In this document: positions 4,064 to 24,697 of the stretch, piece by piece
How positions within the stretch are numbered: position 1 is the stretch's first letter
How the letters are laid out: each line of letters starts with the position of its first letter
Virus record (IMG/VR): IMGVR_UViG_3300035696_000002
Direction: 5' to 3' (one strand)
Source of the DNA: a virus
Taxonomy: Duplodnaviria > Heunggongvirae > Uroviricota > Caudoviricetes
Length of the DNA: 64,000 bases
Made by a program: the position numbers and the translations under genes
Notes under the pieces: generated by a model
The model's database searches: none
Told to the model about the DNA's origin: nothing
What the model saw: the letters and a program-made list of their open reading frames with translations, nothing else

Positions 4064-7053
4064 TATGCACCCTCAACGTTGAAACTTGTGTCGCCGCCCT
4101 CAGTACCGAGGCGTTCCCACTCCTCGTCAGGCATCCACTGCGGCTTCGCGAATCCACCGCTCTCATTTGCGATCATATCGCGGGCCTGATCGACAGTCAA
4201 TCGACCATCCTGCACGTCTTCCCATATTGTCTTGACGCGATCCTTCAACTCGTTTGTCTTCTTTTCGTCGCCCATCAGCGACTTGATTGCTTCCCAAGTC
4301 ACGGACTGCAACTGACGCGGCTTGACGCCCAGCTTCGCCGCCGCTCTCTGGTAGGCCTCAGCGTACAGCGGGTACGTGCCCTGCAACCCTGTTGCGGAGT
4401 TCTTGGGGGCACCGGGGGTACCAACAAGCGTGCCGCCGAAGTTGTGCGTCGCTTCCAAATCCTTCGCCCCGAACGGACTAAGCATCCCGGCTGCGACCGC
4501 GTGCGTGTCAATAGTCACGTGCCCGGCCTTGGAGTTCGGGTTGATGATGTTGTTGTAGAAGTTGCGAATCTTATGACCATGGCCCATGACCGCGTTGATA
4601 TTTTCGATATCGCCGTTGTCGAGAATCTTGACTGCTTTGGCCAAGTGGTCAAGACCAATCCAACTCCGCATGTCAGGCGATTCACCAGACACCGTCCCAT
4701 CGGGGGCGTAAGCCTCATTGATCGGCGAGTTGTAAGCCTCGTCGTAAAGTCTGATCCACAGTGCCCGCTTGGTTGCCTGCACATCTGGATTTGCGTCAAC
4801 GACCTGACCGAATGTTTTCCCGCGAATGTCACGGAGCATTGCCTTGAAAGCCCGCGACTGTGTCGGCACAGCGGCCAACTCCTTCACCTTGACATCCATC
4901 TCTGGCGTCCATGGTGAGTTCTGGTGATTCTTGTAAATGTCCAACATCCGCTTCGTCAAACCAATATTGTTGTCCCACGGATTCTGCGGTGACAGGGCGG
5001 CGGTGACGCCAGCAACCTGCTCGGGCGTGAAACCGTACTGCTGGGCAAACTGATTCGTCAGGCGGTGAGCCGAGTCGTACCACTTCTTCGTCTTTTCGCG
5101 AAGCTGTTCAGGAACTTGGTTGTACAGCCAGATGAGGTTGTCCCTGACGTGATTGATGAACTTGTTGAGTACCTTGTCGGGGTCTTTCATTTCGGCAGCC
5201 GTGTATTTCACGCCTGAATAGCGGATGACCGTAGCCGCGAGCTTGTCCTTGTAACCGGGTACGGGCTTGCCCTGCTGAGTTTTGCGACGTGGGCGATCCT
5301 TGTCAGCTTGTTCGATAGCAGCCCAGTTCGAATACTGTCCGGGCTTGTTGGACAATTCCGCACCAACAGATTTCGGACGGCGAGTAGCGATTTCCTTAGC
5401 ACTGAAGTCGCCGATCTCTTCCTCTTTCACATCTGCGGGGGCTGGGGCGGCAGGCTGTTTCTTAGTCTGTGGCGGAGCCTCTTCAACCGCAACTTCTTCC
5501 GGCTCTGGGGCAGGCGGGGCGGCAGGCTGTTGTGGTGCTGGAACCGTCGCTTCCTGATCTCGCTCAATCACTGCCGGATCAAAGTCCGTATCACCCTCAT
5601 CATACTTTGATTCATCATACAGATCAGATTCTTCCGGCGTCAGGTCTTTGTGAGCAGGCCCGCGATCCTGTGCTCGTGCGTCGTCATACGCTTCCATCTC
5701 TTCCTGATCGGGCTCTTCATAAACCGCGACGCCGCCTTCTTCAAGATCATCGTCCGAGGTCGCCAGCTTGCCGACGTTGCCCGCACGGAGGAGGGCGACT
5801 TCACGAGCGAGAGCATTCTTCCGCTTGACCGGGTCTTTCCACTCGCCGAGGTATGCGTCGTCATTCAAGTAAGCTTCAGCGGCGTTTGCAGCGATCTCAC
5901 GCAATTCCTTCGGCAACGTATCAGCCCCGTGCGTGGCAAGAAACACAACCACACCCAGAGCGTGCTTAGTGTCGTCGCCGACGTTACCCTGAAACATGCG
6001 TTCAAGTTGAGCGTACAAAGTCGGGAGGTGCCCCGGATCAACAGGTTGATCGAATCCTTTGGACTTCTGCCCGCCCGGATCATTCAGCTTCAGACGGTAC
6101 TCGTCGAGGATGTCATGCACCTGATCGCTGTCGTAGGAACGCTCGCCCCACTGACCCGCTTTCTTCTCCGCATTCATTTTGGAGATGGGCACACGGGATG
6201 TGTCAGGAATGGTTGGATCGACTTGCTTCTGCCAGCCGCCCCACAACCCCTTACCGGAGGCGATCTGCGGAGCAAACTTCTCCGCGATCAGTTGCGTGGC
6301 AACTTCTTTTTCTTCTGCTGTGGGGAAGGAAAAGTAGGAGGCGTTGATGTCGTAATCCGTCGCTACTTCGAAATCTTTTATACCCGCTTCGGCCAAGGCC
6401 ATGGCTACTGCATGTGAGCTTTCGGACGGGACACCGAAAGCTACACTAGGGCGGTGGGAGCCGCCGTACTTTTTTCTGATGCCGACCTTTTCCACGGAAC
6501 CAATTCGATTCAGCGGCACGCTGCCGGGAACAGGCGAGGTACCGGGAGTGACTTCAATCGCCGGATTGTAGGCGTCGTGATTTACGAGGCTCTGCTTCAC
6601 CATCTCGATTGAGAAACCCGGCTCGGTGTAAACGCGGTTGATCCATTTGCCGTTGAGATAAACATCCCATGGTGTGCTGGCGGAGGAGTACTGCCGTGTC
6701 TGCTGTTGAACCTGTGGCTGTTGCGGACGCTGCCCGGTAGGCTGAGCACCCGGTGCCCCCGGCTGCGGCTTCTTGGGCATCATGATGCGGGACTGCCAGC
6801 CTTGATCCTGCTGCTTGGGCGGGCACGTAACGTGGTTCTCGACGCCGCCTTCCCAGTTGACCATCTGCCCCTCGCCAATCGGCTGCCCGCATTTCGAGCA
6901 GGCCGGGTTGCCGTACTGGCTCATGTTGAGCGGTGCCCCGGCTGCCTCTTTGGCCTCCTCGGGGAACTTTTCCTTCGACTCCTGTTGCCAGTTGTCGGTG
7001 GGACGGTTTTGATTGAAATCGAACGCGGTTTTGGGCTTAAAGAGGGGGTTCAT
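4063..7053 (-). CDS. Multidomain (polyvalent-type) protein: small domains, DUF4259-like domain, acidic/Pro linker, C-terminal HhH-glycosylase-like domain
   Basis: Start MNPLF at 7053 has SD GAGG. GQWGERSYDSD...WKDPVKRKNAL is DUF4259-like. WYD...AALSPQNPWDNN...KIRNF...VTIDTHA...LGVKPRQLQSVTW matches a phage family with HhH-GPD-like features. Confidence 0.6.
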   Translation of the reverse strand: MNPLFKPKTAFDFNQNRPTDNWQQESKEKFPEEAKEAAGAPLNMSQYGNPACSKCGQPIGEGQMVNWEGGVENHVTCPPKQQDQGWQSRIMMPKKPQPGAPGAQPTGQRPQQPQVQQQTRQYSSASTPWDVYLNGKWINRVYTEPGFSIEMVKQSLVNHDAYNPAIEVTPGTSPVPGSVPLNRIGSVEKVGIRKKYGGSHRPSVAFGVPSESSHAVAMALAEAGIKDFEVATDYDINASYFSFPTAEEKEVATQLIAEKFAPQIASGKGLWGGWQKQVDPTIPDTSRVPISKMNAEKKAGQWGERSYDSDQVHDILDEYRLKLNDPGGQKSKGFDQPVDPGHLPTLYAQLERMFQGNVGDDTKHALGVVVFLATHGADTLPKELREIAANAAEAYLNDDAYLGEWKDPVKRKNALAREVALLRAGNVGKLATSDDDLEEGGVAVYEEPDQEEMEAYDDARAQDRGPAHKDLTPEESDLYDESKYDEGDTDFDPAVIERDQEATVPAPQQPAAPPAPEPEEVAVEEAPPQTKKQPAAPAPADVKEEEIGDFSAKEIATRRPKSVGAELSNKPGQYSNWAAIEQADKDRPRRKTQQGKPVPGYKDKLAATVIRYSGVKYTAAEMKDPDKVLNKFINHVRDNLIWLYNQVPEQLREKTKKWYDSAHRLTNQFAQQYGFTPEQVAGVTAALSPQNPWDNNIGLTKRMLDIYKNHQNSPWTPEMDVKVKELAAVPTQSRAFKAMLRDIRGKTFGQVVDANPDVQATKRALWIRLYDEAYNSPINEAYAPDGTVSGESPDMRSWIGLDHLAKAVKILDNGDIENINAVMGHGHKIRNFYNNIINPNSKAGHVTIDTHAVAAGMLSPFGAKDLEATHNFGGTLVGTPGAPKNSATGLQGTYPLYAEAYQRAAAKLGVKPRQLQSVTWEAIKSLMGDEKKTNELKDRVKTIWEDVQDGRLTVDQARDMIANESGGFAKPQWMPDEEWERLGTEGGDTSFNVEGA

Positions 7054-7088
7054 TTTGATCCTCAATAAGTAGCTGAAAAGTTGAGGTT

Positions 7089-7700
7089 TTAGGGCTTTGG
7101 GCAATTGCCCGGATTTGAGGAGCCGCCCGTGCCGCCCGCAGGCCCGGCACTGCCGGGGCCGTTGCTACCGGAACCGGGGTTGTTCGTAGAGCTTTGAAAT
7201 CCCTTGTAGTTCGGGCCGTCGCGGATCACCACGGGAGCCCAGTCTTGGAAGATCGGGAACCCAAGGAAGAAATTCCCAGCGAACTCAACCCAGTACCCAC
7301 GGAAAGGTTCAAAGCCAGCACTCAACAGGGTGACCTTACCTTCCGAAATAGGACGATGCGTGATATTGGGCGAGGTCGGCCCGGTCATCTGCAACGGCTG
7401 ATAGGTCGGCGGCGGTGGGAGCGGAAGCTCTCCCCACTTCAGGTTCTTGTTCTTGAACTCATTCATGAACAGCACGAAGGCTGTCTGTGGGTCAAGCTGA
7501 CTGATGTCGTGATTCATCAGGTACAGCGTGTTGCCGAACAACACCGTGGTCTGCACTTTGGCGAGGATTTGCCTCACGGAGAGGATTGCACGCCAGCCAG
7601 AACGCCACGTTGAGCCGTAGGGATTCGGTGGGAGCGGCTGCCCCTTCAGGATGTCCACGGCCAAGATGTTGTTCGATACGTTTGAGGTGGTGTTTCCCAT
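7089..7700 (-). CDS. Hypothetical virion-module protein (likely start MGNTTSN)
   Basis: TAATG coupling at 7700; G/S/N/P-rich C-terminus. Confidence 0.6.
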   Translation of the reverse strand: MGNTTSNVSNNILAVDILKGQPLPPNPYGSTWRSGWRAILSVRQILAKVQTTVLFGNTLYLMNHDISQLDPQTAFVLFMNEFKNKNLKWGELPLPPPPTYQPLQMTGPTSPNITHRPISEGKVTLLSAGFEPFRGYWVEFAGNFFLGFPIFQDWAPVVIRDGPNYKGFQSSTNNPGSGSNGPGSAGPAGGTGGSSNPGNCPKP

Positions 7701-11958: not shown

Positions 11959-14900
11959 TTACTGACTCGTAATGTAGTTGATCGTGATCGTCCCCGGTGT
12001 CAAATACTCCGTGGATGACACGGCAATGTCCTTCGCTCCGCCTTCGTTAAACACCTGATAGGTGACGAAGAAGGAAAGTTGTCCCGGATTGGACGCAGTC
12101 GGGAAGTCAGGAATCGGCGGCAGTGTAATCATGACCTTCTGGGCATACGCAAACGTCAATCCCTGCGACGGGCTGATTTCATCGTTCTCGCCGATGATGT
12201 AGAACGAGGGGACGCCGATGCTGTTGGTCAGGAAATCATTCACCGATGTTGCACGGCGGAAAGACTGCCCTTGGTACAGCAGGTTGACAACTGCATCCGG
12301 TTCGCCGCCGCTCGGGATCGTGCTGTCCGGCAACACAGGCAAAACTGTAATGAAGCTCTGAGCCGGGGCCTGCAACCCAGCAAATGCTGGATCGCTGGTG
12401 ACCGGAATCCACGCTGTCTGTGTCGGAATCACAAAACCGATATCATAGGAGCCATCCGACTTCGCACACTTCGTCAACGGCAGGGTGATGCTTTGAACGC
12501 CAGTAACCGCCTGAACCTGACGGATCAGAGCAGACTGATAGAGCGTACCCTGAGCATTGTCCAACACAATACTGATGACAGTGCGAATGATCGGGTCTAC
12601 TGTTGCCGCATCGGCGTTGGGCATGAGCGTAACGGTCATCGTAATATCAACTGGGTTCGCAACCATGTTCTTGACGAGAACATTTGCCGCCGCGTGCTTG
12701 GTCTGGGCAATCTGGTTGGCGAGCACTTCAACGAAGGTGGGGTACTGAGTTGACAGCGTAAAGGTCTCAGTGATGAAGTAGGAGACCGTCACCGTTCCAC
12801 CATCAGGAATGCTGCCTGTCAAGATGCGAGTAATCTGGGCCTGCCCGGAAACCGGATCAACGCTAAGAGAGAAGTCGATCCCTTCTCGTTTCACAACGTT
12901 CGTGACGCCGTTAAAGTAGGTGACTTTGATGTAGCGTGATGCGAGTGGAATGGCTGCACCCACGAGCCCGGTTGAGCCGACAACATCAAGCCCGCCGTCT
13001 GGGCCATAGAGACCGTCCCAGCCATCAAGAGTCAACGTCGTATTGCCATAGCTCAGCGGCAGCCATGTGTTTCGAACAAAGCCCGTGTTATCGAGTGTTG
13101 TGGGCAGCGTGCCGTTTAGCACCTGCGTCTCGCCGGAGATGAACTCAAGCCGCTCATACAGGACAAATTTATTGTAGGCAACAACGACCTGTTGGTTGTT
13201 CTGGATGGCACTTCCTGTCGCCAAACCTGACTGAACAATTGAAGCAATTCCGGTGTCCGCCGTGGGGCCGTAAGAACCAGTGTAGGTGTAATTTGCGGTG
13301 AACGAAGTTGGCGTAGCACTCTGGACGTTCAACTGTACGCCATTCAAGAAGGCCGCGTTCGTAAGGCCTGAGAAGATGATGGCCGTGCCCGGCGTCAAAT
13401 TGTTAGCCACGCTGGTGACCGTCAGAATGTTGCCCGCGATAGCGACCGTCTGGATGTCAGACCCGTAATTCGGATTGACGTACACGCCAGTAAATTGCGA
13501 TCCATTGTTCGAGGCGACAGTGATGGTCTGTGTGTTCAAGAACAGAGCTTGACTCATGCCCGACAACACAATCGGAGCATTAACACCAAAGTCGCTCGTG
13601 GCGGTGATGTAAGCGACGTTGTTCACGATAGCGACCGCCGATAGTGGCACCGACTTCGTCAGGAGGTTCAGCCCGTAGGTATGGTATGGCCCAGTCGCGG
13701 CGATAGAGTAGTCCACACCGAATTCATACAGGGTGAAAAGATCGGTACTACGAACGGACAAAATATTCTGCGGGTTACCATTCAGGTCAATCGGGACATC
13801 CATCGCCGTGTCGATCTCAGCCGGGTTGGCACTCAAAGCGGTGATCGTAGCGGTAGTCGGCTGACTGACGATGTTGACCTGTACAGTATCCCCGGCCTGA
13901 TTGGAGCCGCCTTCCAGCAGGAAGTCCGATGTATGGATCAATTCGATGGCACTGGACGGGACTGCACCAGTCTCATTCGCTTCTCCGGTCACTGAGTAAA
14001 CCTGCAACACAGGCTGCAAGCTGGGGACGTTCGTCAGCGGGGAAGCATAGCGAGCGTACAAGGCAAAGCTGTACGTGTTCGATTGAGCACCTTGGAGGGA
14101 TGCGATAGCCTGCAAGTTTGTGGCGGGGACATTATTGATGAGCAACGGCACCTGTGCCTGCGTAATCGCAGACCCCACATACTGATAGGCCAGATCATTC
14201 TGGTTGACGATGATGTAGCCGTTGACATTGTCGAACTGGGCTCGCTGCAACCCGAGATAGAAACTGTTAGACGCACGCGAAACGATAAGCTCAACAGCAT
14301 CGTAAAGCGGGAACTGCAAAGCATTGAAATTCGTGATCTGGAACTTAAGCTGGCTGCTGTTCGGGAGGGTCAGGGGCAGATACGTGGCAACTTGCCCGTA
14401 GGTTCCAGTGTTGTCGTACTCAAAAGCGACAAGCTGATTCTGCTGCGAGAAGCTGATTCCCTGCACGTAAATATCCACACAGCCGTAAACGTGCTTCTGC
14501 CGCACATCATCCCAGTCACGCAACATTTCAAGATCGCCAGCCGCAACTACTGAAGCACTGACGACGCCGGGCGTGCCGAGGGCCGTAACCAGATATCCAT
14601 GGCGGGTTCCCGTGTCCACACCTGTTACGAGGCGGGCCTGAATCATAGCGGCGTAAGAAGCGTTGGATTGCTGGTCGGTACCATACTGGGCCGCTGTCAG
14701 GTTCGTCACGTTCATCCCCGATGGAACGTTGCTGACAACCTGTAAAATCGTGCCTGCACCAACGTTCGTGATCGAGCCTGTGGAATTGCACTGAGCCGGG
14801 ACGCTAACCGCCCAATATCCCGTGGTCGAATCGTAGAACGAATTCAAGTTGTTGATGCTGATCGTGCCCTGACCCAACGTCGTGAAGTTGAGGGAAGGGG

Positions 14901-16770
14901 TGTTTTGGTCGGCAATCGTCGCCACGACGGCTCCCTGCGGAATCGTAATGCTCGCTTGCGGCTGCTGATACGTGTAGAACGTCAGCACAACCGAAGACGG
15001 CGTCGCGGCCCCACGAGTCAACCCGGCCTGTTCGCCGAGGATGTTGAACTGTTCGTCGATGAGGCTCTGGGTATCGGCGGCACTCAAGCCATACGCACGG
15101 GCGATCTGTTGCTTGTACGGTGATTGCTGGAATGGATCGGAAACACCTGTCCCGGTCGTATCGTCGATCTGGCTGATGGCAGAAATAGATTGCGACACGC
15201 GAGCAAACCATTCGCGGACAGACATGTTCGACATTTCGATGGATGGCGGATCAACAACCACATCCCGCACTTCAGAACGCGGCGATAGATCGAGTGTGGG
15301 CCGCTGCCGCATAATCTGCCCGATCATACGCCCAGCGATATCTTCCTTTTTCTGCAAGGCAAGGAAATCTGTGGGGCTGACGACCTTCAAATTTACAAAA
15401 CCGCAAGTAAGCGGGCCGTTCTGGATGGATTCGTAAACCGCGTTGGTGCCGGGGTCTTGAATGACTGTCGAGAACATCGCGTAGAACTCATCGGCGTTAA
15501 CGGCTGTGAGCGGAATATCGACTGTGCTGTAGCTGACGTTCTCCACCGTCTGGGTGTTCGTCACAATAGTGGTCGAGACCACACTGGAAGCGACACCAGT
15601 ATCCGCAGTAGCGGGATACGTCCCCGAGTACACGAAGCTCGCAACAAATTGTGTGCTTGTCGCTGAACTGATAGTGACCGTTTGTCCGTTTAGGAACGTT
15701 GCATTCGTCAGTCCGGCGAGGGTGACAACGGTGCCCTGCGAGAAAGTGCTGTTCGCAGTGATTGTCAGAATATTGTTTGATACCGCAACCTGAGTGATTA
15801 AAGCCGTGGGTACGGTATTCGTCGTGGTGGTGTTTTCCGCAATGACCACGGTTGAGGTGCTGCTGACATCACCGATCAAACCACCATACTGGGTGAACGG
15901 AGGGTTGATGCCAGCCGGGTCAGTTGAGATCATGACGCGGACACCGACGAATCCGTTAAAATTTGGGGTTACCCATTGCAGCAAGCAATCGGTCTGATTC
16001 TTGAAGGCCTGAAGTCCTGTCGGGGGGCCGATGATCGTTGCAAGGCCGCTGGCGAAAAACAACAAGTTGAACTGAATCGTGGGTGTGATTGCTGAGACGC
16101 CCAGATTGGCCCAGACAACAGAACCATCCGCTGTGGTAGCGGAAGCCTTCCCTGTGTCTGAGGTCGCCGGATAATCGTTGTGCAGGAACCCGGCTGTAAA
16201 TTGTGTGCCCGAAGCAGAGACAACGACCAAGGCCTGATTGTTCAGGAATGCCGCATTCGTCAGCCCAGTCAGAAGAACTGTCTGGCCAATCGAGAAGGTG
16301 TTGTTCGCGATAATCGTTACAACGTTGCTGGTAAGCGAAACATTTGTGATAACCGCAGGGGCGACAGCCGGGAATGCTGGCTGATTTGGCCCAGTGCCCG
16401 ACTCGCCCGCCGTGATGACGCTCTCAACATAGCCGTTGTTGTCGATAAACGTGTAGCCGACAGCAAACTGCGTCAGCGGCGTCCATCGTCCGGCTGGGTT
16501 GTAGTTTCGGCCCACAATCGAGACTGAGGTCTCCTGCACCGTGGGAACCACAGCAATGCTGGTCGAATACTGATTTTCGCCACTAACAACCGTAGGCGTC
16601 GTGAGAACGGTCAAAGCACCATAGGCCGAGATTTCAATGCGAGCCGTGTTCTCGTCAGCATTCAGAATGATCGGGAGTACGGTGGAGTCGATAGACAAGG
16701 TTCCACTGCCCACGGCGAGAACCGGGGTGACCAGTTGTAGCGGCGTCAATGTCACTTGCGGCGTAGGCAT
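11959..16770 (-). CDS. Large baseplate J-like wedge protein with inserted repeats
   Basis: GLTRGAATPS...IPQGAVVAT...TGSITNVGAGTI...GTDQQSN...GCVDIYV are Baseplate_J hallmarks. Confidence 0.8.
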   Translation of the reverse strand: MPTPQVTLTPLQLVTPVLAVGSGTLSIDSTVLPIILNADENTARIEISAYGALTVLTTPTVVSGENQYSTSIAVVPTVQETSVSIVGRNYNPAGRWTPLTQFAVGYTFIDNNGYVESVITAGESGTGPNQPAFPAVAPAVITNVSLTSNVVTIIANNTFSIGQTVLLTGLTNAAFLNNQALVVVSASGTQFTAGFLHNDYPATSDTGKASATTADGSVVWANLGVSAITPTIQFNLLFFASGLATIIGPPTGLQAFKNQTDCLLQWVTPNFNGFVGVRVMISTDPAGINPPFTQYGGLIGDVSSTSTVVIAENTTTTNTVPTALITQVAVSNNILTITANSTFSQGTVVTLAGLTNATFLNGQTVTISSATSTQFVASFVYSGTYPATADTGVASSVVSTTIVTNTQTVENVSYSTVDIPLTAVNADEFYAMFSTVIQDPGTNAVYESIQNGPLTCGFVNLKVVSPTDFLALQKKEDIAGRMIGQIMRQRPTLDLSPRSEVRDVVVDPPSIEMSNMSVREWFARVSQSISAISQIDDTTGTGVSDPFQQSPYKQQIARAYGLSAADTQSLIDEQFNILGEQAGLTRGAATPSSVVLTFYTYQQPQASITIPQGAVVATIADQNTPSLNFTTLGQGTISINNLNSFYDSTTGYWAVSVPAQCNSTGSITNVGAGTILQVVSNVPSGMNVTNLTAAQYGTDQQSNASYAAMIQARLVTGVDTGTRHGYLVTALGTPGVVSASVVAAGDLEMLRDWDDVRQKHVYGCVDIYVQGISFSQQNQLVAFEYDNTGTYGQVATYLPLTLPNSSQLKFQITNFNALQFPLYDAVELIVSRASNSFYLGLQRAQFDNVNGYIIVNQNDLAYQYVGSAITQAQVPLLINNVPATNLQAIASLQGAQSNTYSFALYARYASPLTNVPSLQPVLQVYSVTGEANETGAVPSSAIELIHTSDFLLEGGSNQAGDTVQVNIVSQPTTATITALSANPAEIDTAMDVPIDLNGNPQNILSVRSTDLFTLYEFGVDYSIAATGPYHTYGLNLLTKSVPLSAVAIVNNVAYITATSDFGVNAPIVLSGMSQALFLNTQTITVASNNGSQFTGVYVNPNYGSDIQTVAIAGNILTVTSVANNLTPGTAIIFSGLTNAAFLNGVQLNVQSATPTSFTANYTYTGSYGPTADTGIASIVQSGLATGSAIQNNQQVVVAYNKFVLYERLEFISGETQVLNGTLPTTLDNTGFVRNTWLPLSYGNTTLTLDGWDGLYGPDGGLDVVGSTGLVGAAIPLASRYIKVTYFNGVTNVVKREGIDFSLSVDPVSGQAQITRILTGSIPDGGTVTVSYFITETFTLSTQYPTFVEVLANQIAQTKHAAANVLVKNMVANPVDITMTVTLMPNADAATVDPIIRTVISIVLDNAQGTLYQSALIRQVQAVTGVQSITLPLTKCAKSDGSYDIGFVIPTQTAWIPVTSDPAFAGLQAPAQSFITVLPVLPDSTIPSGGEPDAVVNLLYQGQSFRRATSVNDFLTNSIGVPSFYIIGENDEISPSQGLTFAYAQKVMITLPPIPDFPTASNPGQLSFFVTYQVFNEGGAKDIAVSSTEYLTPGTITINYITSQ

Positions 16771-17567
16771 TATTGGTTCATCCTCAACGTGAGGTTAAGC
16801 GGGGCGGTCTGATTGGAGTAGTTGGAAACACTCACCGACAAGTTCACAGTCGTCGGATCGGTTGGGTCAACATTGGCTACCACGCTAATCACGTCCTTTA
16901 GAATTTCATTCGGTTCAAGAGTCTGCACAGTCTGTTGTGCCTGCTGAACCTGCATCATCTGCGTCAAGGCATCTATCACCTGAGACTCGATGTCGCTCCC
17001 TGTAATGGAAATACCGAGTTTTCGGCCAACATAATTTTTGATGAGGCAGATGAATGTCGGGTAGAATGGGCACGTCGAAGTCAGAATCCACTTGAAGCTT
17101 TTCTGTACCAGCTTCGTCGTTCCCGTAACGTGCAGCAAACTACCGGAATTTGCCTGCTTAAAATCATTCAACACACCCAGCGTGCTGCACTTCAGGCAAT
17201 ACCCCTGAAGCGTGATGTACGAAACCTCGATCAAAGGCAGTACGATACGCACAGGTTTGTTGAACACGATCTTGTAAAACTGGCCTGTGTTGTCCGTAGC
17301 AGCATCGGCCCGTAGCGGGTCGAGAACGAATGACCAACCATACGTCGGGTCGTTCTGCTGTACCTGCTCGTCGCTGATCCACATCTGCACGTTGCTTTGC
17401 CCGTTGATCGGGGCACGCATATTCAACACCGGATTCGAGGCGTAATGCAGCGTGCGGAAATTGGTGCTGTCAACGATGTACCGCTCAAAGCTCTGCTGAT
17501 GGTCGCACGCACCGATAGGAGCATTCGTGAACGGGTCATTCGTTAGTACGTTCCAGTCGTAGCTCAT
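16770..17567 (-). CDS. Baseplate wedge protein with gp25/gpW-like C-terminal domain
   Basis: VTGTTKLVQ...ILT...FYPTF and DPTDPTTVNLSVSV; lies immediately before the gpJ-like gene. Confidence 0.6.
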   Translation of the reverse strand: MSYDWNVLTNDPFTNAPIGACDHQQSFERYIVDSTNFRTLHYASNPVLNMRAPINGQSNVQMWISDEQVQQNDPTYGWSFVLDPLRADAATDNTGQFYKIVFNKPVRIVLPLIEVSYITLQGYCLKCSTLGVLNDFKQANSGSLLHVTGTTKLVQKSFKWILTSTCPFYPTFICLIKNYVGRKLGISITGSDIESQVIDALTQMMQVQQAQQTVQTLEPNEILKDVISVVANVDPTDPTTVNLSVSVSNYSNQTAPLNLTLRMNQ

Positions 17568-18235
17568 TACGTCTCGGTCGGCTCCTTAAGATTGATTGGC
17601 CCGCCCGGCGTTGTACGTGCAAACTGTTCATACTCATACTGTGTCGGGACATCCAATTGGTGGACACGGAACCGGGGCTGCGTCGTTCCGGTTGGGTACA
17701 CATCCGATTGATCCATCACTAAAGCGGCTTGGTATTCTGGACTGCTGAAATAGCCGTTGATCTTTGTGATGAGTGCGGCGATGGAGTTGTCCGGGTGATT
17801 GAGAGCGTAGTAGGCTTTTTGAGCCTTATCCTCATTCTTTTCAATCAGATTGCGAAGCTGATTCATGTGGAAAACGCTTTCATCCTGACGATTAAGCTGT
17901 TCCCGCATGTAGCCCTTGATTTTTCCCATGGCGACCATAGGGAGGTGGTCATCACGCCACGCATACCCGAGGTGCCCCTGCGGGCCGGGCTTCCACGCCT
18001 GCTTTTGAAGTGTCGGGGCCAGCTTATCATCGTTGATGTTGGCGTAGTAATTCTCAAGGACGCCAGCCGTCTTACGAAGCTGCTGGGCTCTGATCTGGTA
18101 GTGAAGCTGGATCGCAGGAAAGTTTTTGGTGCGAGCGTTTACCCACGCATTGAACGCTTGCTGCTGAGTCGTGCAGAAATGTCCAAGGAAGTTGAACGGA
18201 GGCCCTGTATAGCCGTATTTGAACCCATTACCCAC
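17567..18235 (-). CDS. Hypothetical helical structural protein
   Basis: 222-aa ORF with TAATG coupling. Confidence 0.65.
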   Translation of the reverse strand: MGNGFKYGYTGPPFNFLGHFCTTQQQAFNAWVNARTKNFPAIQLHYQIRAQQLRKTAGVLENYYANINDDKLAPTLQKQAWKPGPQGHLGYAWRDDHLPMVAMGKIKGYMREQLNRQDESVFHMNQLRNLIEKNEDKAQKAYYALNHPDNSIAALITKINGYFSSPEYQAALVMDQSDVYPTGTTQPRFRVHQLDVPTQYEYEQFARTTPGGPINLKEPTET

Positions 18236-18247
18236 ACATTCTCCCTC

Positions 18248-21208
18248 TTATGCTACCGTCGTAACGTTGTGCACAACCAGACCATTCGCGAGCGTGTAGC
18301 TGTGCTCCGTGTCGAGTGCGGTACCGTCATCATCTGGATCGCAAGTGATGTGCAGATTATGAATCGTGCCCTTGTAGTGAACAACCGGGAATCTATCCAA
18401 ATCCTGCATAGGCTTCCATGCCCCGTTGTCCTTCACGTGATGAGTTGTGGTAGAAAGTTCTCCATCACCCATATCGAGCATCAGTCCGTCCCACTTGAGG
18501 CTTGTGACGTACTCGACAACGCCCCATGTACCGCGTGCAGTTGGCACCAAATCACCGGGCTTAACGTCGATGATCGCGAGATCGCCGCGTTGAGTTTTGA
18601 CCTTGGTGTTCGGGCTGAAGCAGACCGCAGCCTTGTTGTGTGCGATGTCGCCGTTCCAAAGAATGTAGTGCTTGTCTTCCGGGTTAGCCGACAACACGTG
18701 AGCGTTGTAGACCGTGCCCTCGAACCACACACGATTCGCTGTCGGATATTTCTCTTCGGCAGTAAGCCATTCGGTGCCGACCTTCATCTCGTGATCGAGC
18801 GTGACGAGCTTACCGGGGGCAATTTCCAACATCCAGCCTTTGTAGTTTTCGTGGACAAGGAGTTGTGCCCAGTGAGTGCCTGTCTCGTTCACAAGCTCAA
18901 ACTTTTCGGGCAGCGAAGCGAGTTCCACATCCCCGTAAGGTGTCTGAATTGCGACATTACCTGTGAAGCACGTGATAATAATCACTGGAGCGGAGTATAG
19001 TGTCGTGCTGAACCAAGGATCAGGAACGGTGTGCAATCCGCTTGCCTGATCGGTGACACTGAATCCGAGGTAGAAGCTCGCATCACCGTCAACAACGGCT
19101 ACCGAACCCGTGAACGTCTTGAAATAGACGGTCTTCCCGGAGATGGTTCCGGTACTGCTGTTTGTCAACGTACCTGCCCCAAGCGATGTAGTAGTTGAGC
19201 CTACCTTCTTTTGGAAGGTGAGAACAACGTTGTCATTCGTGGTGGTATAAATTTGTGCCGTAATCGCAGTTGAACCCGCAGGCAGAGACGGCCCGGCTGG
19301 AGTCGTGGAGAAAGCGTACTCGACTGGATTCGTGAAACTGGTTCCGGTCAAAACGATGGTGCCCGGAATCGGCGTGGTGCCGGGGTACGGGTTTCCAGTA
19401 GTGAAGGTGTTGCCGCTCAAATAAGTCAGTGTGCCAGAGAACGACACGGACGCCGTAGAATTGACGTTCGTAGAAGACACAGGGGCGGTTACGTTCACGT
19501 TGTAGCCAGTGATGAAGCCGCTGGATACAATCGGCGTCACGGAGGTGACTGAGATACCACCCGTGAAAGTGAACGTCGGGTTAATCGAGTTGTTGACACC
19601 GTACTGGCTCGCCCCCTGCTGCTGCGGGGAGATCGGCTTGGCCAGAGTTGCGACGAATGTCTTTGCTCCGCCGTCAGCCGCGAGGCCAGTCAGTGGCGAA
19701 ATGCTGGTGATTACAGGCTTGACCATGTAATCGACGTTAATCTGGTAGAGCACACCACCAGTGCCACTCGACGGAGTGAATAGATCGAATGTGGCAGGGT
19801 TTGATCCAGCCGCAGGGCTGTACCACGCAATGTCATCTTGCTGAATGCTCAGAAGAGTGGAGGCCGTCCCGGAGACGAATGCCCCACCATTATAGGCAAG
19901 GTTGAAGGCCGAACCTACAGCGGTCACAGCAAACAAACCGTTCCATGCGTTGTTATCAACACCAGAAACGCTGATGACCTTGCTCGTGGCGGCTGCGGTC
20001 AAATTCACTGCACCACCGGGGAATGCTGGCAGAGAGTATGTGTTCAACGTTGGACTGTTGTAGACATTGAGATTTCCCGCTGTTCCCTCATACACCGGAA
20101 TGTACGACTGCGTGGCGTAGTGGATGTTCTGCACCGTGACAGTCATCGTGTAGCTGGTGCCCTGCAACGACACAACACCGCCAGTCGGGGTCAACAGCAG
20201 GTTGCCGCTTCCCGGACTGCTAACAGGAGGAACACTCACAATTGAAACTGGGAAGAAGGTCGGCGTTCCAGCAACGTTATCGCCTTCATTGTTGTACTGA
20301 GTCTGCTGCCCGGCGAGGTATGTAAGCTGGAAATAACCGTTGTTGTCGCCGCTGAACTGCACCGGATTACGCTGGTTGTAAACGATCTCGATTGGGTACT
20401 TGCCCGCGACCGGGAAGTTGATGTACGAACCACGAGTGCCGCCGTACAAGCCGGGGTCTTCGTTGTTCGCACCCATCAGCACGCTGCTGGTCGGAGTCTG
20501 GGCATTCCAGAAAGCAGTGTTCGGCCCAGTACCCGGAAATGGGTTGGCTCCTCCGTTTACGATCTGGTTGGTTGAAAGCAGGGTCGCTCCGCCGCCGATC
20601 CAGAAGGCACACTGGCTGACGTTTGCGAAAACCATGTAGACGGTATAAGTGCCCGGCGTCTTGACGACGAGTTGGCCCGTCATATCGAGGATGAATGGGT
20701 TGCCTGTGCTACCTGATCCCGACCCCGGAATCGGGAGGCTGCTCGCATACTGGCCAGTTGCAGTCTGTTCAACGAAAACAGCAGGAATCAATTTGTAACC
20801 GCCGCCCGGCCCAATGTTGGTCGGCTGACTGTTGAATCCGTTGATCGGCGTGTTCTGATCGACTTGGTTGATGACGCAGGAATTCGCCGTCAGTGTGCCT
20901 TGTAAGCCCCCACCGAACCCGGCCCAGCCCGGAACCTGCCCGGAGTTGCCGTAGACGGACACAGCCAACGGGCCGATGGCAATCGCACCATTGACCTGCT
21001 GCCACGCCAGTTCGGCGTTATTCGAGGTGAGATTCGAACCAGCGATGGTCGCCGACGCCTGATAGGTGTCCGTACCCGCGTTGGTGCCCGTGAACGCAAC
21101 CGTGCCTGTGCCGCTGCCGTTCGTTGGGCTTACGTTGATCTGGATAGTCTTGGTCGCCCCTGCGTTGGCTCCCGACTTATCCGTTATTGTAATCGTCTCA
21201 ATTGGCAT
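18248..21208 (-). CDS. Ig-like/PA14-like virion protein with two C-terminal tandem Hint (BIL-like) domains
   Basis: N-terminal Big_1-like and PA14-like (GQLVVKTPGTYT...GKYPIEIVY) segments. Hint1 CFTGNVAI...VTLDH...VYN...IAHN (18970-18635), linker KAAV, Hint2 CFSPNTKV...TTTHH...IHNL...LANGLVVHN (18622-18266). Confidence 0.8.
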   Translation of the reverse strand: MPIETITITDKSGANAGATKTIQINVSPTNGSGTGTVAFTGTNAGTDTYQASATIAGSNLTSNNAELAWQQVNGAIAIGPLAVSVYGNSGQVPGWAGFGGGLQGTLTANSCVINQVDQNTPINGFNSQPTNIGPGGGYKLIPAVFVEQTATGQYASSLPIPGSGSGSTGNPFILDMTGQLVVKTPGTYTVYMVFANVSQCAFWIGGGATLLSTNQIVNGGANPFPGTGPNTAFWNAQTPTSSVLMGANNEDPGLYGGTRGSYINFPVAGKYPIEIVYNQRNPVQFSGDNNGYFQLTYLAGQQTQYNNEGDNVAGTPTFFPVSIVSVPPVSSPGSGNLLLTPTGGVVSLQGTSYTMTVTVQNIHYATQSYIPVYEGTAGNLNVYNSPTLNTYSLPAFPGGAVNLTAAATSKVISVSGVDNNAWNGLFAVTAVGSAFNLAYNGGAFVSGTASTLLSIQQDDIAWYSPAAGSNPATFDLFTPSSGTGGVLYQINVDYMVKPVITSISPLTGLAADGGAKTFVATLAKPISPQQQGASQYGVNNSINPTFTFTGGISVTSVTPIVSSGFITGYNVNVTAPVSSTNVNSTASVSFSGTLTYLSGNTFTTGNPYPGTTPIPGTIVLTGTSFTNPVEYAFSTTPAGPSLPAGSTAITAQIYTTTNDNVVLTFQKKVGSTTTSLGAGTLTNSSTGTISGKTVYFKTFTGSVAVVDGDASFYLGFSVTDQASGLHTVPDPWFSTTLYSAPVIIITCFTGNVAIQTPYGDVELASLPEKFELVNETGTHWAQLLVHENYKGWMLEIAPGKLVTLDHEMKVGTEWLTAEEKYPTANRVWFEGTVYNAHVLSANPEDKHYILWNGDIAHNKAAVCFSPNTKVKTQRGDLAIIDVKPGDLVPTARGTWGVVEYVTSLKWDGLMLDMGDGELSTTTHHVKDNGAWKPMQDLDRFPVVHYKGTIHNLHITCDPDDDGTALDTEHSYTLANGLVVHNVTTVA

Positions 21209-21217
21209 CTTTAGTCC

Positions 21218-24200
21218 TTACTGACCCGGAATCAATTGTGTTGGAATCGGGTTAGTGGCCGCTAGGCGAATAGCGGTATCGCTATAGACCCTCCACTTGA
21301 AGGAACCCGTAACGTTTACACCCGAATCCGTTACCGAAAGGGATAGGGTGTTGTCTCCAATGACTCCTGAGGAGAAACTACCGTTCAATTCAATCAAACA
21401 TGTGCCAGTACCCGTATCCAAACCACCGGACGGGATTGACGCCGTAATGCCTGACGTTCCAACCGAAAGGGTGATCTGGCTCGGGTTGGTGGAAACAACC
21501 CCCGTGGCGACGACGAAGAATGAGTCGTTTGGACGCGGCGTGATCGAACTCACGCTGCCCTGTGCCACGAAGCCGATGTATCCATAGTTCGTGCTGTCCA
21601 CGTAATCCGGCCCGGCCTGAAGCGTAAGCCCGGCGATGACCTGCAAGTTCAAGCTCTTGTCCACGTGAGCACCGATGTTGTCAGTGACACGGAAGATGAT
21701 CGGCTTATTGAAGCCAGTCAGACTCGTAGTACCTGTGATCGCACCCGTCGATGGATTCAATGCAAGGCCCGTGGGCAGGTTGTTTGCCGAGGACGGGGAG
21801 ATCGACCATGTGTACGGAGTCGTACCACCAGTTGCAGCCAGCGTAAGCGAGTACGGACGGCCCGAGGTTGCGTTCGGCAATGTAGCCGTCGTAATAGTCA
21901 ACGACGAGGACTGAATCTGGAATTGCAAAGTTGCTGATGCAGTATCCGCAGGTGACAGAGCATCCGCGACGTGCACGGTAAGCTGTCCGGTGTACGCGGC
22001 TGGCGGGTTCGCGGCCAGCAACAGACCTGAACTGGAGATTGAAATTGTGGCCAAATCTCCTGCGGGCAGTGCCGGATTGAAATCGCCTGCGACGACGTTC
22101 GACCACACGAACGGCTGCACCAGTGCAGGCTGACCGTTGCTGGTTGCCGTAAGCTGTGTCGAAGTTGAAGCCCCGATAATCGCGGGCGGTAGCGTCGTTG
22201 TCGTCACCTTCAGACTGCTCGTGGTTGTCAACAGCAGAATAGCCTGAGCAGAGTTTCCGTTCTTGTCCACCGCAATGACCTTCACCGCGAGAGGATTGCT
22301 TGGCGGAATCTGTCCGGTGTATACGCCAGAGATGGTTGCAGTCTGACCATTGTTTGTTGCAGTCGCCTGAAGCACCAAGCCTGCCGGAAGCGGGTTTGGT
22401 GAGTCTGACGTAACCTGCCACGACACTGGCGTAGTGTACGGGCCAGACAACGACAAGGTACCAAGATACGAAGCACCACGATCAATCGGGCCGACGCCAC
22501 TGGTGACGATGAGCATGCCTGTAGCAGACCCGGTCTGTAGGGTGTACGTCTGTGTTGCAGTGTGTACCCCGGAATCGTGCACAGTGACTTGCAATGGCGT
22601 GGTGAATCCAGTCACGCTGGTCACACCTGAGAACACGCCCGTCGAACCGTCGAAAGCGATGCCCGACAACCCAGCAATCGGGAAAGTCGGCACGGTCGTC
22701 CACGTATAGGGCGGTGTTCCACCAATCGCCGTCATGGCGAACGTGTAGCTCTGCCCCGGAACAATCGTCGGGATAGCCTGTGTCGTAATCGTCAACGTAT
22801 CATTGACGGCAACAGTCAGAACGGCCTGCGTCGAAGCTCCACGAACATCCGTGAGGATGAATGTGTCGTTTTCCGTGGTCGTATCCGGTGCAGTCGTTGT
22901 GCCGGAGATCAGGCCACTGGAACTCAGAGTCAGTCCGGGGAACGTTGGGTTCAGACCGCCCGGCCACTGTGGCGAAGACCAAGTGTACGGCTGAATGCCG
23001 CCTGTGCCTTGTAGCAAGAACGAGTAGGGAACCCCCGTGATGAGTGTAGGAATCTGCGTGGTTACGATGCTCAACGGGCTCACGTAGTCCACAAAGAGAC
23101 GGTGATACAAGTACGAATGGTGCCCGTTTGTGTCGGGAACGTTGAACCACAGATCGAAGTACCCAGCCTCAGTCGGGGTGCCAACGATGTCGATACCCAG
23201 ACCCGAGATGTCCACCTGAAGTGTCAAGCCCTGTGGCAGGCTGCCGTACAGGAGCGTGGGCGGAGCCAGCGGCACTGTGGCCGAGGACACCAAGGCATTC
23301 GTTCCGTTGATCGGGGCACCAATCTGCGGAGCAGGCGTGATGTTGTTGATGTTGTCGATCAACAGGTAGTCGTTGCTGACTGTCGTCCAGTTGATTGTGA
23401 CTGTGCCGTGAACCGTGCCAGTTGAATCAATATACTGAATGGTGCTCTGGGGAACTCCGGTGCCGACAAGCGTGCCGTAGATCAAGCCAGTGTTGGAGTC
23501 CAGTGAGAGACCGGGCGGCAAGGACGAGCCCGGAGCCACGATGACACTGTAGGCCGTGTTCTTCGCAATGTTTGGCGAGTTGAAATATGGCTTCTGGGGA
23601 TTCAACCCAACGAAATCGCCGACCACATACGGACGAGTGTAGGTGTTGACGATTCCAAGATCGCCGGGGACTGCCTGATCGTCGTGGCACACGAAGGTGT
23701 ACTCGCGGGAGACCTGTCCCACGTTGACGCTGCCCTGCTGGAGAACGAGCGGGATGCGGAACTGTGAGTTGCGGAACGTCGAACTCAGGGCTGGCGGATT
23801 CCCCGGAGGCCCAGCAACTTCGACGATTTGGTTGACGTTATCGACCGAAACCGTTAGACCGTTCGGTAGCACAACAGGCTGCTGCGGTGCCAGAGTCAAA
23901 CCGTTGAAATTTCCAACGACTGGGAAAATGATCGAAGTCGTATCGTTGTAGTCCCAGTAGTGATCGAAGAAAGCCTCTTCGATTCGGATGCTGCTTACGG
24001 TCGGCTGCACCTGATAACTGAACTGCTGGTTCACCGTTGTACTGTTTGAGTCGCTGGCAGTCAGAGTGAACGTGTGAGTCCCGGTCTGAAGATCGTTCGG
24101 GTCTACCATGACCTCGACCTGACCATCCACCAGCTTCACAGCCTGTGTGGCAGGAACCTGAATCACGAGAACCTTGGATACCGAATTGTTCAAAGCATCG

Positions 24201-24697
24201 GTCGCCTTGACACCAATTGTCCACGAACCGACTACCGGGATGGAGAAGTTCAATGTGCTTCCGCCAGTACCCGTGAGCGAGGCTTGTGTAACGCCCGGCA
24301 TCGTCGTCGCACTCTGAATGATCGTCCACGTAATCGGGGTCACACCGCCGCTGGAAAGCAACGGCATGGAAACCGCGAGCGGGAACGCTGCGGGCTCGTA
24401 GTTCTGACTGGTGTTCAGGATGTTGAAGATGCCCGGATCGACCACAACAACATTGATGATGCTGTCGTCGATATTCGATGCAGTGTCAATAAGCTGGAAA
24501 TGCACCGTGTAAGTGCCCGGAGAGACCCCAGCCGCATTCAAAGTGAACTGTAACGGGCCATTCTGCGTGACCGTGCCGCCAGCAGGGATGAACGTCGTGT
24601 TGTACGGCGGGTCAGGCGGAGACACTACGACGGCATGGTATGGGGCTGTTCCACCCACTCCGGTCAGCGTAATCGTCGTTTGTGTAAGAGGCGGCAT
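21218..24697 (-). CDS. Putative Ig (He_PIG) repeat protein
   Basis: Multiple LTITT-x-LP...GGxxPYTW...LPxGLxL...TGxIxGT repeats. Confidence 0.8.
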   Translation of the reverse strand: MPPLTQTTITLTGVGGTAPYHAVVVSPPDPPYNTTFIPAGGTVTQNGPLQFTLNAAGVSPGTYTVHFQLIDTASNIDDSIINVVVVDPGIFNILNTSQNYEPAAFPLAVSMPLLSSGGVTPITWTIIQSATTMPGVTQASLTGTGGSTLNFSIPVVGSWTIGVKATDALNNSVSKVLVIQVPATQAVKLVDGQVEVMVDPNDLQTGTHTFTLTASDSNSTTVNQQFSYQVQPTVSSIRIEEAFFDHYWDYNDTTSIIFPVVGNFNGLTLAPQQPVVLPNGLTVSVDNVNQIVEVAGPPGNPPALSSTFRNSQFRIPLVLQQGSVNVGQVSREYTFVCHDDQAVPGDLGIVNTYTRPYVVGDFVGLNPQKPYFNSPNIAKNTAYSVIVAPGSSLPPGLSLDSNTGLIYGTLVGTGVPQSTIQYIDSTGTVHGTVTINWTTVSNDYLLIDNINNITPAPQIGAPINGTNALVSSATVPLAPPTLLYGSLPQGLTLQVDISGLGIDIVGTPTEAGYFDLWFNVPDTNGHHSYLYHRLFVDYVSPLSIVTTQIPTLITGVPYSFLLQGTGGIQPYTWSSPQWPGGLNPTFPGLTLSSSGLISGTTTAPDTTTENDTFILTDVRGASTQAVLTVAVNDTLTITTQAIPTIVPGQSYTFAMTAIGGTPPYTWTTVPTFPIAGLSGIAFDGSTGVFSGVTSVTGFTTPLQVTVHDSGVHTATQTYTLQTGSATGMLIVTSGVGPIDRGASYLGTLSLSGPYTTPVSWQVTSDSPNPLPAGLVLQATATNNGQTATISGVYTGQIPPSNPLAVKVIAVDKNGNSAQAILLLTTTSSLKVTTTTLPPAIIGASTSTQLTATSNGQPALVQPFVWSNVVAGDFNPALPAGDLATISISSSGLLLAANPPAAYTGQLTVHVADALSPADTASATLQFQIQSSSLTITTATLPNATSGRPYSLTLAATGGTTPYTWSISPSSANNLPTGLALNPSTGAITGTTSLTGFNKPIIFRVTDNIGAHVDKSLNLQVIAGLTLQAGPDYVDSTNYGYIGFVAQGSVSSITPRPNDSFFVVATGVVSTNPSQITLSVGTSGITASIPSGGLDTGTGTCLIELNGSFSSGVIGDNTLSLSVTDSGVNVTGSFKWRVYSDTAIRLAATNPIPTQLIPGQ

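Follow-up and report, generated by a model that had tools for sequence, protein, structure and literature searches.

The analysed window is a stretch of 64,000 nucleotides from an uncultured 463-kb phage. An open frame on its minus strand, at positions 18248–21208, has a stop-free translation of 986 residues and encodes P0001, a tail-module precursor with two C-terminal Hint domains. An AGGA ribosome-binding site lies 6 nt upstream of the ATG, and the gene is closely packed with those on either side. Upstream, on the same strand, lies the gene of a He_PIG Ig-domain protein of 1159 residues (21218–24697; PF05345, E = 1.2e-15). Downstream, also on the minus strand, are the genes of a conserved tail-module protein of 265 residues (16770–17567), which is syntenic in related loci, and of a Baseplate_J-like protein of 1603 residues (11959–16770; PF04865, E = 1.5e-12) that marks the module as baseplate or tail. 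At locus L005 the corresponding position is taken by a protein 49% identical to the 265-residue one (E = 3e-87). Two open reading frames downstream of P0001 gave no match in Pfam or PHROGs. The neighbourhood context was taken from related loci L004–L008 and L012; related loci were found with A6, a smaller alignment of the H2 subtype of Hint described below.

P0001 consists of an adhesin-like body, or N-extein (residues 1–745, 18974–21208), and two stacked Hint cassettes that make up the last 241 residues, all encoded on the minus strand. The body ends in VIIIT. Hint1 (residues 746–857, 18638–18973) is a domain of 112 residues and of the H1 subtype, which starts at Cys746 in the motif CFTGNV, has TLDH as block B, and ends in AHN at Asn857. 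The linker KAAV (residues 858–861, 18626–18637) begins with Lys858, the family-conserved lysine after H1-type Hints. Hint2 (residues 862–981, 18266–18625) is of the H2 subtype and has 120 residues, with Cys862 in CFSPNT, a T..H block B, a DTEHSYTLANG motif, and a terminal VHN at Asn981. Behind it there is the C-terminal tail VTTVA (residues 982–986, 18251–18265) and then the stop codon at 18248–18250. The translation bears out an earlier note on this DNA, in which two tandem C-terminal Hints with a KAAV linker and a VTTVA tail had been claimed, both keeping Cys1 and the terminal His-Asn and having Lys and Val as +1 residues. The length given there for Hint1 was correct, but Hint2 had been counted as 119 residues. 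The end of the feature had been placed at 18970; the Cys1 codon of Hint1 is 18971–18973, so the feature starts one codon past that position.

In the body, residues ~180–300 form a weak PA14/GLEYA-like region, with a Pfam PA14 match at E = 0.091 and GLEYA matches in three P0001 orthologs at E about 1e-3. These weak signals, and a position next to Ig-domain and Baseplate_J proteins, agree with the PA14-like carrier body that had been proposed. A score of 0.79 for Atlas features is a lead only. A conserved shaft at residues ~365–640 is common to P0001 and the "minor tail protein" gp244 of Tunturiibacter phage Tunturi_5, which is 34% identical over residues 369–598 and has no Hint. Full-length homologs (P0002–P0013) are 34–47% identical to P0001. 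A Pfam scan of P0001 at E ≤ 1 listed only Hint_2 and PA14, and thus no endonuclease or toxin domain, as the earlier note had stated; PHROGs and NCBIfam searches with P0001 gave no match. P0001 is best explained as a precursor form of a host-recognition (minor tail) protein that is associated with the baseplate.

The tandem C-terminus was modelled with AF2 from a 14-row tandem alignment, giving a pLDDT of 89.7, as opposed to only 35 with single-sequence input. The MAFFT alignments A2 and A3, in which singles and tandems are mixed, put all singles on one domain and were left out of the fold modelling. Both domains model as Hint folds, one of the two points on which the earlier note had let its reading stand or fall. 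Each superposes on intein, BIL, Vint, or Hedgehog structures with Z scores of 11–13 and an rmsd of 2.0–2.8 over 107–115 residues. For Hint1 (model residues 4–119), the Z score is 13.0 for the NpuDnaE intein and 12.5 for BUBL1 BIL2; for Hint2 (model residues 119–240), it is 12.8 for the BIL structure 2lwy (rmsd 2.0, 109 residues), 12.6 for Vint (8r2c), and 11.3 for Hedgehog (1at0). Foldseek on the model gave BIL2 (6y75) as the top match, with a probability of 1.00 and E = 1.1e-4.

Sequence profiles agree with the fold. Pfam Hint_2 matches residues 862–902 with E = 2.7e-5 in full-length P0001, and reaches 29.7 bits against a cut-off of 28.4 when the C-terminal 245 residues are scanned alone. Among 56 family members, Vint matches 19 and Hint_2 matches 14. 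PT-HINT is not among the Pfam matches. A profile of the family against the PDB finds 2lwy as its best match, weakly (E = 0.028); a PDB sequence search with the single sequence gave nothing useful. PT-HINT (PF07591, E ≤ 1) and Intein_splicing have zero matches across the whole genome. Hint1 and Hint2 are homologous to each other, with 26% identity in BLASTP (E = 4e-12) and a profile-profile probability of 99.9 (E = 2e-36). Cys1, the block-B T..H, and the terminal His-Asn are invariant or nearly so in alignments of 56–60 members (A2, A4, and A5), and all are retained in both Hints of P0001.

These Hints belong to a large family of swappable caps, found at the C-terminus of phage proteins for host recognition. 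A query with the C-terminal 245 residues found 294 representatives of metagenomic clusters (50% identity) at E ≤ 1e-3, 35 of them at E ≤ 1e-30, far more than chance would give. In nearly all carriers the Hint is at the extreme C-terminus, usually behind a poly-Gly linker. For most of the 154 members examined, the tail behind the His-Asn has 3–7 residues, and poly-Gly usually precedes Cys1. The carriers belong to the tail-tip or adhesin class and include gpJ-like, PA14, lectin, and CBM proteins; the domains found in them are Phage-tail_3 (7 members), Laminin_G_3 (7), PA14 (4), GLEYA (4), and CBM_5_12 (4), as well as Rcc01698_C and GpJ FNIII. In a Terriglobales prophage (L007), for example, a gpJ-like protein with an H2 cap is flanked by hub and NlpC/P60 genes and by an integrase. 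The cassette is absent from the cultured phages in a collection of 50,697 records. In the literature searched, we found no paper that deals with Hint domains at the C-terminus of phage tail proteins and no earlier description of the family.

A survey of Hint copy number in homologs, as the earlier note had suggested, shows that the counts vary among orthologs. Two copies of the H1 or H2 type are present in 14 of the 154 members examined, about one in ten, and P0044 has an H1 and H3 pair. The tandem had been called very unusual; it is indeed a minority state, but with these examples it is recurrent and not a singular design. Orthologs of P0001 carry H1, H1+H1, H1+H2, H1+H3, or H3 alone; the one at L005, for instance, has a single H1 behind poly-Gly and the tail NKIGP. 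H3 is a putative Hint subtype, assigned by ESM-Atlas structure matches, and hhalign finds no link between H3 and H1. Hint1 of P0001 is closest to Hint1 of P0015 (76% identity), and Hint2 is closest to the only Hint that P0019 carries (64%); between themselves the two P0001 domains share only 26%. Internal duplication was therefore rejected as the origin of the P0001 pair. For tandem copies in general, the nearest relative is usually the single Hint of a different protein, which indicates that tandems arise by the stacking of cassettes. In P0001 a second cassette of the H2 type would have been added behind an existing one of the H1 type. In one clade the second Hint lacks the terminal His-Asn, an observation that fits redundancy or decay as well as a two-step design.

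The residues behind the Hints differ with the subtype. A lysine is found within positions +1 to +3 in 64 of 73 H1 tails, where 6.8% would be expected (binomial p = 1e-64), and in all tandem linkers; the H1 and H2 tails differ in this respect (Fisher test, p = 2e-22). H2-type tails have 3–7 residues, with a Thr at +3 in 21 of 63. The +1 residue is Ser, Thr, or Cys in only 4 of 73 tails of the H1 type and in 8 of 63 of the H2 type. In a comparison with the acceptor of BUBL-type domains, P0001 has the lysine downstream of Hint1 (+1 to +3) and none after Hint2. Because VTTVA has no lysine, the idea of a lysine acceptor cannot hold for both steps. On sequence grounds, the conserved lysine behind H1-type Hints points to a putative intramolecular acceptor rather than an outside target.

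Both Hints show the type A BIL signature that had been recognized before: Cys1, TxxH, a His-Asn at the end, and a +1 residue that is no nucleophile. Neither comes with an endonuclease or toxin domain. Type A BIL domains are likewise endonuclease-free, have ~110–140 residues and no Cys, Ser, or Thr at +1, and are borne by variable surface-exposed proteins (Amitai 2003, Dassa 2004, and, for the Clostridium thermocellum BIL of PDB 2LWY, Aranko 2013, all as cited in PMC7664689). In contrast to P0001, where the carrier is a phage tail protein, the C-extein has 4–5 residues, and two domains are stacked, the BIL domains described are internal to secreted or toxin-type proteins of bacteria, which have a genuine C-terminal domain. 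Sequence similarity between the two is weak, and PT-HINT of Pfam gives no match. A canonical class 1 intein was rejected for P0001, given the +1 residues Lys and Val and C-exteins of 4 and 5 residues.

The best Foldseek match, BIL2 of Tetrahymena thermophila BUBL1 (6Y75/6TMM), superposes on both P0001 Hints with Z scores of 12.2–12.5. It splices onto the epsilon-amine of a lysine to give an isopeptide, without ATP (PMC8616854). H1 Hints of the P0001 type are followed by a nearly invariant lysine. BIL2 is eukaryotic, has ubiquitin-like flanks, and has its acceptor lysine in a folded domain, whereas the candidate acceptor lysine of the P0001 family is in a tail or linker of 3–7 residues; no ubiquitin-like fold was detected, and the Pfam scan of P0001 gave no ubiquitin-family match. 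Hedgehog (Hog) and Vint proteins resemble P0001 in that a C-terminal Hint fold frees an N-terminal functional domain by a thioester route. Hedgehog, however, lacks the terminal His-Asn and carries a sterol-recognition region, whereas the P0001 Hints keep the His-Asn and have only KAAV or VTTVA behind them. PT-HINT domains of polymorphic toxins act as releasing peptidases where a swappable C-terminal cassette joins its filamentous carrier; such carriers include tail-fibre-like stalks (PMC3482391). They free a downstream toxin domain, whereas the P0001 Hints precede only 4–5 residues or another Hint.

The closest functional analogy to the Hint caps is provided by the Peptidase_S74 chaperones of tail spikes and fibres. 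These intramolecular chaperones are self-cleaving modules that form the very C-terminus of receptor-binding proteins in phages and are removed after folding (PMC7824862). Their fold is unrelated and uses a Ser-Lys dyad, in contrast to the Cys thioester and Asn cyclisation expected of the P0001 Hints, and P0001 has no S74 match in Pfam at E ≤ 1.

The Hint folds, the type A BIL signature, and the tail-module carrier together make autoprocessing of the P0001 Hints a reasonable inference. We consider it probable that they are two active BIL-A-like maturation caps that remove themselves from a tail-protein precursor, possibly with re-ligation. The motifs, homology, fold, family-wide C-terminal position, lysine conservation, cassette swapping, and tail context are observed here, whereas processing and the nature of the resolving nucleophile are inferred. 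After folding or assembly, Cys746 and Cys862 would each undergo an N-S acyl shift, assisted by the histidine of TxxH, that turns the peptide bond in front of the Cys into a thioester, and Asn857 and Asn981 would cyclise, cutting the chain after the His-Asn. Classical transesterification is unavailable without a Cys, Ser, or Thr at +1. The thioester might be resolved by water or a thiol, leaving a mature protein of ~745 residues that ends in VIIIT. Alternatively, it might be resolved by the amine of the short downstream peptide, first that of Lys858 and then the amino terminus of VTTVA, leaving a protein capped by a few residues. By either route both Hints would leave the virion protein, and we propose that the self-removal of each cassette is what makes the tandem tolerable or useful.

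The amine route is the one shown for type A BIL domains and Tetrahymena BIL2 (PMC7664689; PMC8616854). For BIL domains without a +1 nucleophile, cleavage is the main outcome, and ligation without a side-chain nucleophile is feasible (PMC7664689). Judged from the conserved lysine, re-joining through this residue or another amine is possible in P0001. Several points weigh against self-removing caps. The cassette is missing from the cultured phages, Hint2 has no lysine behind it, and the second Hint of one clade has lost its His-Asn, as described above. If Hint1 only cleaved, Hint2 would have no effect, and its intact catalytic residues would be left unexplained. In addition, the residues before Cys1 in P0001 are Thr745 and Val861 instead of the Gly usual in the family; both are beta-branched, and a beta-branched residue at this position may slow the first intein step.

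The stacked cassettes could also act as an ATP-independent ligation relay in the virion, although we hold this to be rather unlikely. Hint1 would pass the C-terminus of the body to Lys858 as an isopeptide or amide, and Hint2 would then convert the new C-terminus to a second thioester, leading to a short peptide cap, a subunit cross-link, or a covalent bond to another partner. If true, this would be post-translational chemistry without a viral description in the literature searched.

Among the alternatives to self-removing caps, the cassettes could be neutral or selfish passengers derived from inteins. Recombination would have carried them to the 3' ends of tail genes, which evolve fast, and they would be kept only because they excise themselves; the tandem would be a by-product of turnover that does nothing for the phage. 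Cassette type and copy number do vary among close orthologs, tandem copies are of separate origin, second copies are degenerate in one clade, and the poly-Gly coding repeats could serve as recombination sites. The catalytic residues, too, would persist while a cap left uncleaved does harm. Nevertheless, a cassette at the extreme C-terminus could be removed harmlessly by one stop codon, unlike an intein in a conserved site, and there is no homing endonuclease. The family is also large and old, with its 294 clusters and its three subtypes, not all of which can still be aligned with one another, and is confined to one functional class of proteins. Moreover, the tail motif tracks the Hint subtype (x-K after H1 and x-x-T after H2), which suggests selection on the reaction product. 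A passenger origin of this kind has a small share of the probability.

It is less likely still that, along the lines of the earlier note, the Hint thioesters are not simply hydrolysed or re-joined within one chain but prime the adhesin's C-terminus for a covalent bond to another virion protein (e.g. as a trimer cross-link), a small molecule, or an amine or hydroxyl of the host surface. The carriers are adhesin-like, and most members have poly-Gly before Cys1; a flexible Gly-rich linker that ends in a thioester has the geometry of ubiquitin-like conjugation. Two thioester generators in series would permit a hand-off. The closest solved structures include BIL2, which joins its N-extein to the lysines of other proteins, and models exist in the attachment of Hedgehog to cholesterol and the ubiquitin transfer of BUBL. 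However, for an outside nucleophile the strict terminal His-Asn and the lysine-bearing tail of 3–7 residues would be superfluous, and Hedgehog has neither. Behind both Hints there is no extension resembling a sterol-recognition region or another acceptor-binding domain. No gene for a partner enzyme is adjacent, the only GNAT match of the genome being ~58 kb away within an ORF of 1070 residues, and a thioester that lasts from assembly to host contact is chemically unlikely. It is very improbable that the Hints stay at the tail-protein tip for good as modules for structure or binding, with no catalytic role. Hint folds are beta-rich and could in principle bind, but all catalytic positions are kept across hundreds of diverged members, poly-Gly separates the domain from its carriers, and subtypes are interchangeable on the same carrier.

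The known aids to the maturation of phage receptor-binding proteins are separate chaperones and S74 self-cleaving domains. If the reading of the Hints as self-removing caps is true, they would represent a second, intein-derived system of virion maturation, present in hundreds of uncultured phage lineages, in which Hint domains have been recruited to the benefit of the virus and are not selfish elements. Should the conserved lysine be the acceptor, the cassettes would in addition be compact (~115 residues), natural, ATP-free ligation or capping modules for protein engineering. The free swapping of cassette subtypes and their stacking illustrate the way in which tail genes evolve at their 3' ends.

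The gene for the tail-module protein P0001 is an ORF of 986 codons on the minus strand (18248–21208) with two Hint domains at its 3' end. It has a plausible ribosome-binding site, and the gaps to the neighbouring genes are 9–12 nt. The last 241 residues of the protein run Cys746...TLDH...AHN857, KAAV, Cys862...T..H...VHN981, VTTVA, stop. The earlier note described this tandem end correctly overall, except that Hint2 is 120 residues long instead of 119 and that Hint1 has its Cys1 codon at 18971–18973, outside the bounds it gave for the feature. Hint1 and Hint2 are homologs of each other (26% identity, E 4e-12), their subfamily profiles align with a probability of 99.9 (E 2e-36), and no further Hint-type domain was detectable genome-wide. 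A 423-codon open frame at 17729–19000 on the plus strand of the window, from a mechanical listing, runs antisense to both Hint domains and is most likely no gene.

When full-length P0001 was scanned, Pfam Hint_2 matched Hint2 weakly (E 2.7e-5); when the C-terminus was scanned alone, the match reached 29.7 bits, which exceeds the curated cut-off. Among 56 short family members, Pfam found Vint in 19 and Hint_2 in 14. The best match of the family profile to PDB sequences was a bacterial intein-like (BIL) domain from C. thermocellum (2lwy), followed by inteins. An AlphaFold model of the C-terminus was calculated from a 14-row alignment of tandem proteins (pLDDT 89.7), and its top Foldseek matches all belong to the Hint superfamily (BIL2 6y75, gp41-1, NpuDnaE, Vint). 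VIA-align matched model residues 4–119 to the NpuDnaE intein (Z 13.0) and residues 119–240 to 2lwy (Z 12.8), Vint (12.6) and Hedgehog (11.3). As modelled, each half of the C-terminus shows a complete Hint fold, so the earlier assignment of both domains to Hint, which hinged on such a prediction, stands.

Using the 245-aa C-terminus of P0001 as a query, 294 cluster representatives were retrieved at E<=1e-3, and the best 150 of these were examined together with the full-length homologs of P0001. Their layout is uniform: usually a poly-Gly linker, then C-F-[ST]-x-x-[VT] ... G-x-x-[AV]-H-N, a tail of 3–7 residues and the stop codon. The carriers of this cap are 113 to 2106 aa long and unrelated in their N-terminal parts, where Pfam searches on 60 carriers gave Phage-tail_3 (gpJ-like), GpJ FNIII, Rcc01698_C, Laminin_G_3, PA14, GLEYA, CBM_5_12, CBM_4_9 and TIG. 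One member has the JGI product name "Putative phage tail protein/Hint domain". The cassette is absent from all 50,697 cultured-phage genome records, in which the weak matches are ordinary inteins in DNA polymerases. A search of 185,579 species genomes with the motif of H2, the subtype of Hint2, returned a single match. This is a gpJ-like protein of a Terriglobales MAG (L007:2107–6381, contig DATGGT010000051.1) that ends in an H2 Hint and the tail MPQGTS. It is preceded by hub and NlpC/P60 tail genes and followed by an integrase, and it therefore lies in a small prophage. The match suggests Acidobacteriota as hosts. The tail module of this prophage is GTA-like (BR0599/Gp84 hub, NlpC/P60, and a protein with Phage-tail_3 and Rcc01698_C), with the integrase directly downstream.

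Orthologs of P0001 occur in five arrangements: a single H1 (the subtype of Hint1), H1+H1, H1+H2 as in P0001, H1+H3 and a single H3. The third module, H3 (CP[AS]x[ED]M ... YIYTHN, about 155 aa after poly-Gly), has a tail of 4–7 residues that always ends in VK. It takes the place of H1 in orthologs P0003, P0006, P0008, P0009, P0012 and P0013, and it is the second domain of P0044, an additional tandem with an H1+H3 pair. By profile comparison H3 was not alignable with H1, but matches to PT-HINT, Hedgehog and inteins were obtained with its ESM-Atlas model (TM 0.73–0.78). Two H1/H2-type copies are present in 14 of the 154 members examined, on several unrelated carriers, and the first copy of a tandem is H1 without exception. 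In most tandems each copy is closest to a lone Hint of another protein, so tandems were built time and again when a cassette was placed behind one already there; local duplication is only sometimes the origin (P0035, P0041). In P0001, Hint1 shares 76% identity with Hint1 of P0015, a tandem protein with another kind of second Hint, and Hint2 shares 64% identity with the single Hint of P0019. In one tandem clade (P0057, P0062, P0064, P0066, P0073, P0092 and P0105; alignment A4) the second Hint has Cys1 and T..H, ends ...NGxEA-xDMEG... without the terminal His-Asn, and may be a cleavage-only or decaying copy.

Lysine at +1 to +3 after the terminal His-Asn is found in 64 of 73 H1 terminal tails (44 of them at +2) and in every tandem linker, at +1 in P0001 (K858). 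With lysine accounting for just 2.3% of the residues in these proteins, 6.8% of tails would be expected to have it there (binomial p about 1e-64), and the H2 tails have such a lysine in 5 of 63 cases (H1 vs H2, Fisher p 2e-22); both p-values are overstated because the members are cluster representatives and not independent events, but the difference between H1 and H2 is plain. H2 tails prefer Thr at +3 (21/63), or Lys or Cys as the last residue. Internal H1-type Hints, followed by 85–1509 residues, occur in P0046, P0075, P0079, P0083, P0125, P0140, P0157 and P0097; most again have lysine at +1 to +3, and their arrangement may be polyprotein-like or that of a true BIL. The Hint/BIL fold and chemistry are already known; a search of one literature library found no paper on a large C-terminal Hint-cap family of phage tail proteins, and nothing on interchangeable cap subtypes, the lysine tail or stacked Hint pairs.

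The window is a portion of a 463,033-bp IMG/VR virus record that CheckV rates as complete. A He_PIG Ig-domain protein is encoded upstream of the P0001 gene; downstream, two small ORFs separate the P0001 gene from that for a Baseplate_J-like protein of 1603 aa. Related viral contigs repeat this gene order, and so does the cultured Tunturiibacter phage Tunturi_5; its homolog gp244 carries the annotation "minor tail protein" and adjoins baseplate proteins. The similarity of gp244 is limited to residues about 369–598 of P0001, and it has no Hint. In this 309-kb Acidobacteria phage, gp244 (418 aa) shares only the shaft region and has a different, non-Hint C-terminal domain; the gp244–gp241 module runs large repeat proteins, minor tail protein, small ORF, baseplate protein, baseplate wedge. 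The N-terminal body of P0001 gave only weak PA14/GLEYA signals: its description as an adhesin-like tail protein is reasonable, and PA14 is just a lead. Also in the tail region, a 1013-aa protein (4063–7104, minus strand) has three DUF7178/phrog_3842 repeats of unknown function. A 506-aa protein (47256–48776, minus strand) with an N-terminal SLT lytic transglycosylase domain is probably a tail-associated cell-wall hydrolase. The sole Acetyltransf_1 (GNAT) match in the genome (G000:C1:199884–200057) falls within an ORF of 1070 aa, outside the window and about 58 kb away from the Hint gene.

Both Hint1 and Hint2 have every residue that the N-S acyl shift and Asn cyclisation require, and the +1 nucleophile for transesterification is missing after each. 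Type-A BIL domains likewise lack this nucleophile; they mainly perform N- and C-terminal cleavage, and ligation through an amine is possible (PMC7664689). From these residues we infer that Hint1 and Hint2 would be maturation caps that remove themselves. A functional analogue with different chemistry would be the S74 intramolecular chaperone of tail spikes (PMC7824862). Transfer of P0001 by the Hint thioester to an external target, as the earlier note proposed, is possible but not favoured, because it leaves the His-Asn-x-Lys grammar unexplained and because neither an acceptor-binding region nor an adjacent partner gene is present at P0001. The reading of the cassettes as purely selfish is weakened, because a C-terminal passenger is very easily lost through one stop codon, the family is confined to host-recognition proteins, and the tail motif is conserved together with the Hint subtype.

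As self-removing caps, the two domains would leave a mature P0001 that either has Thr745 as its last residue or has been joined again to KAAV and VTTVA via Lys858 or alpha-amines. Splicing onto a lysine epsilon-amine is described for Tetrahymena BIL2 (PMC8616854). That His-Asn and the lysine are conserved suggests that the C-terminal junction matters, and it favours a maturation in which the junction would be re-ligated rather than simply hydrolysed.
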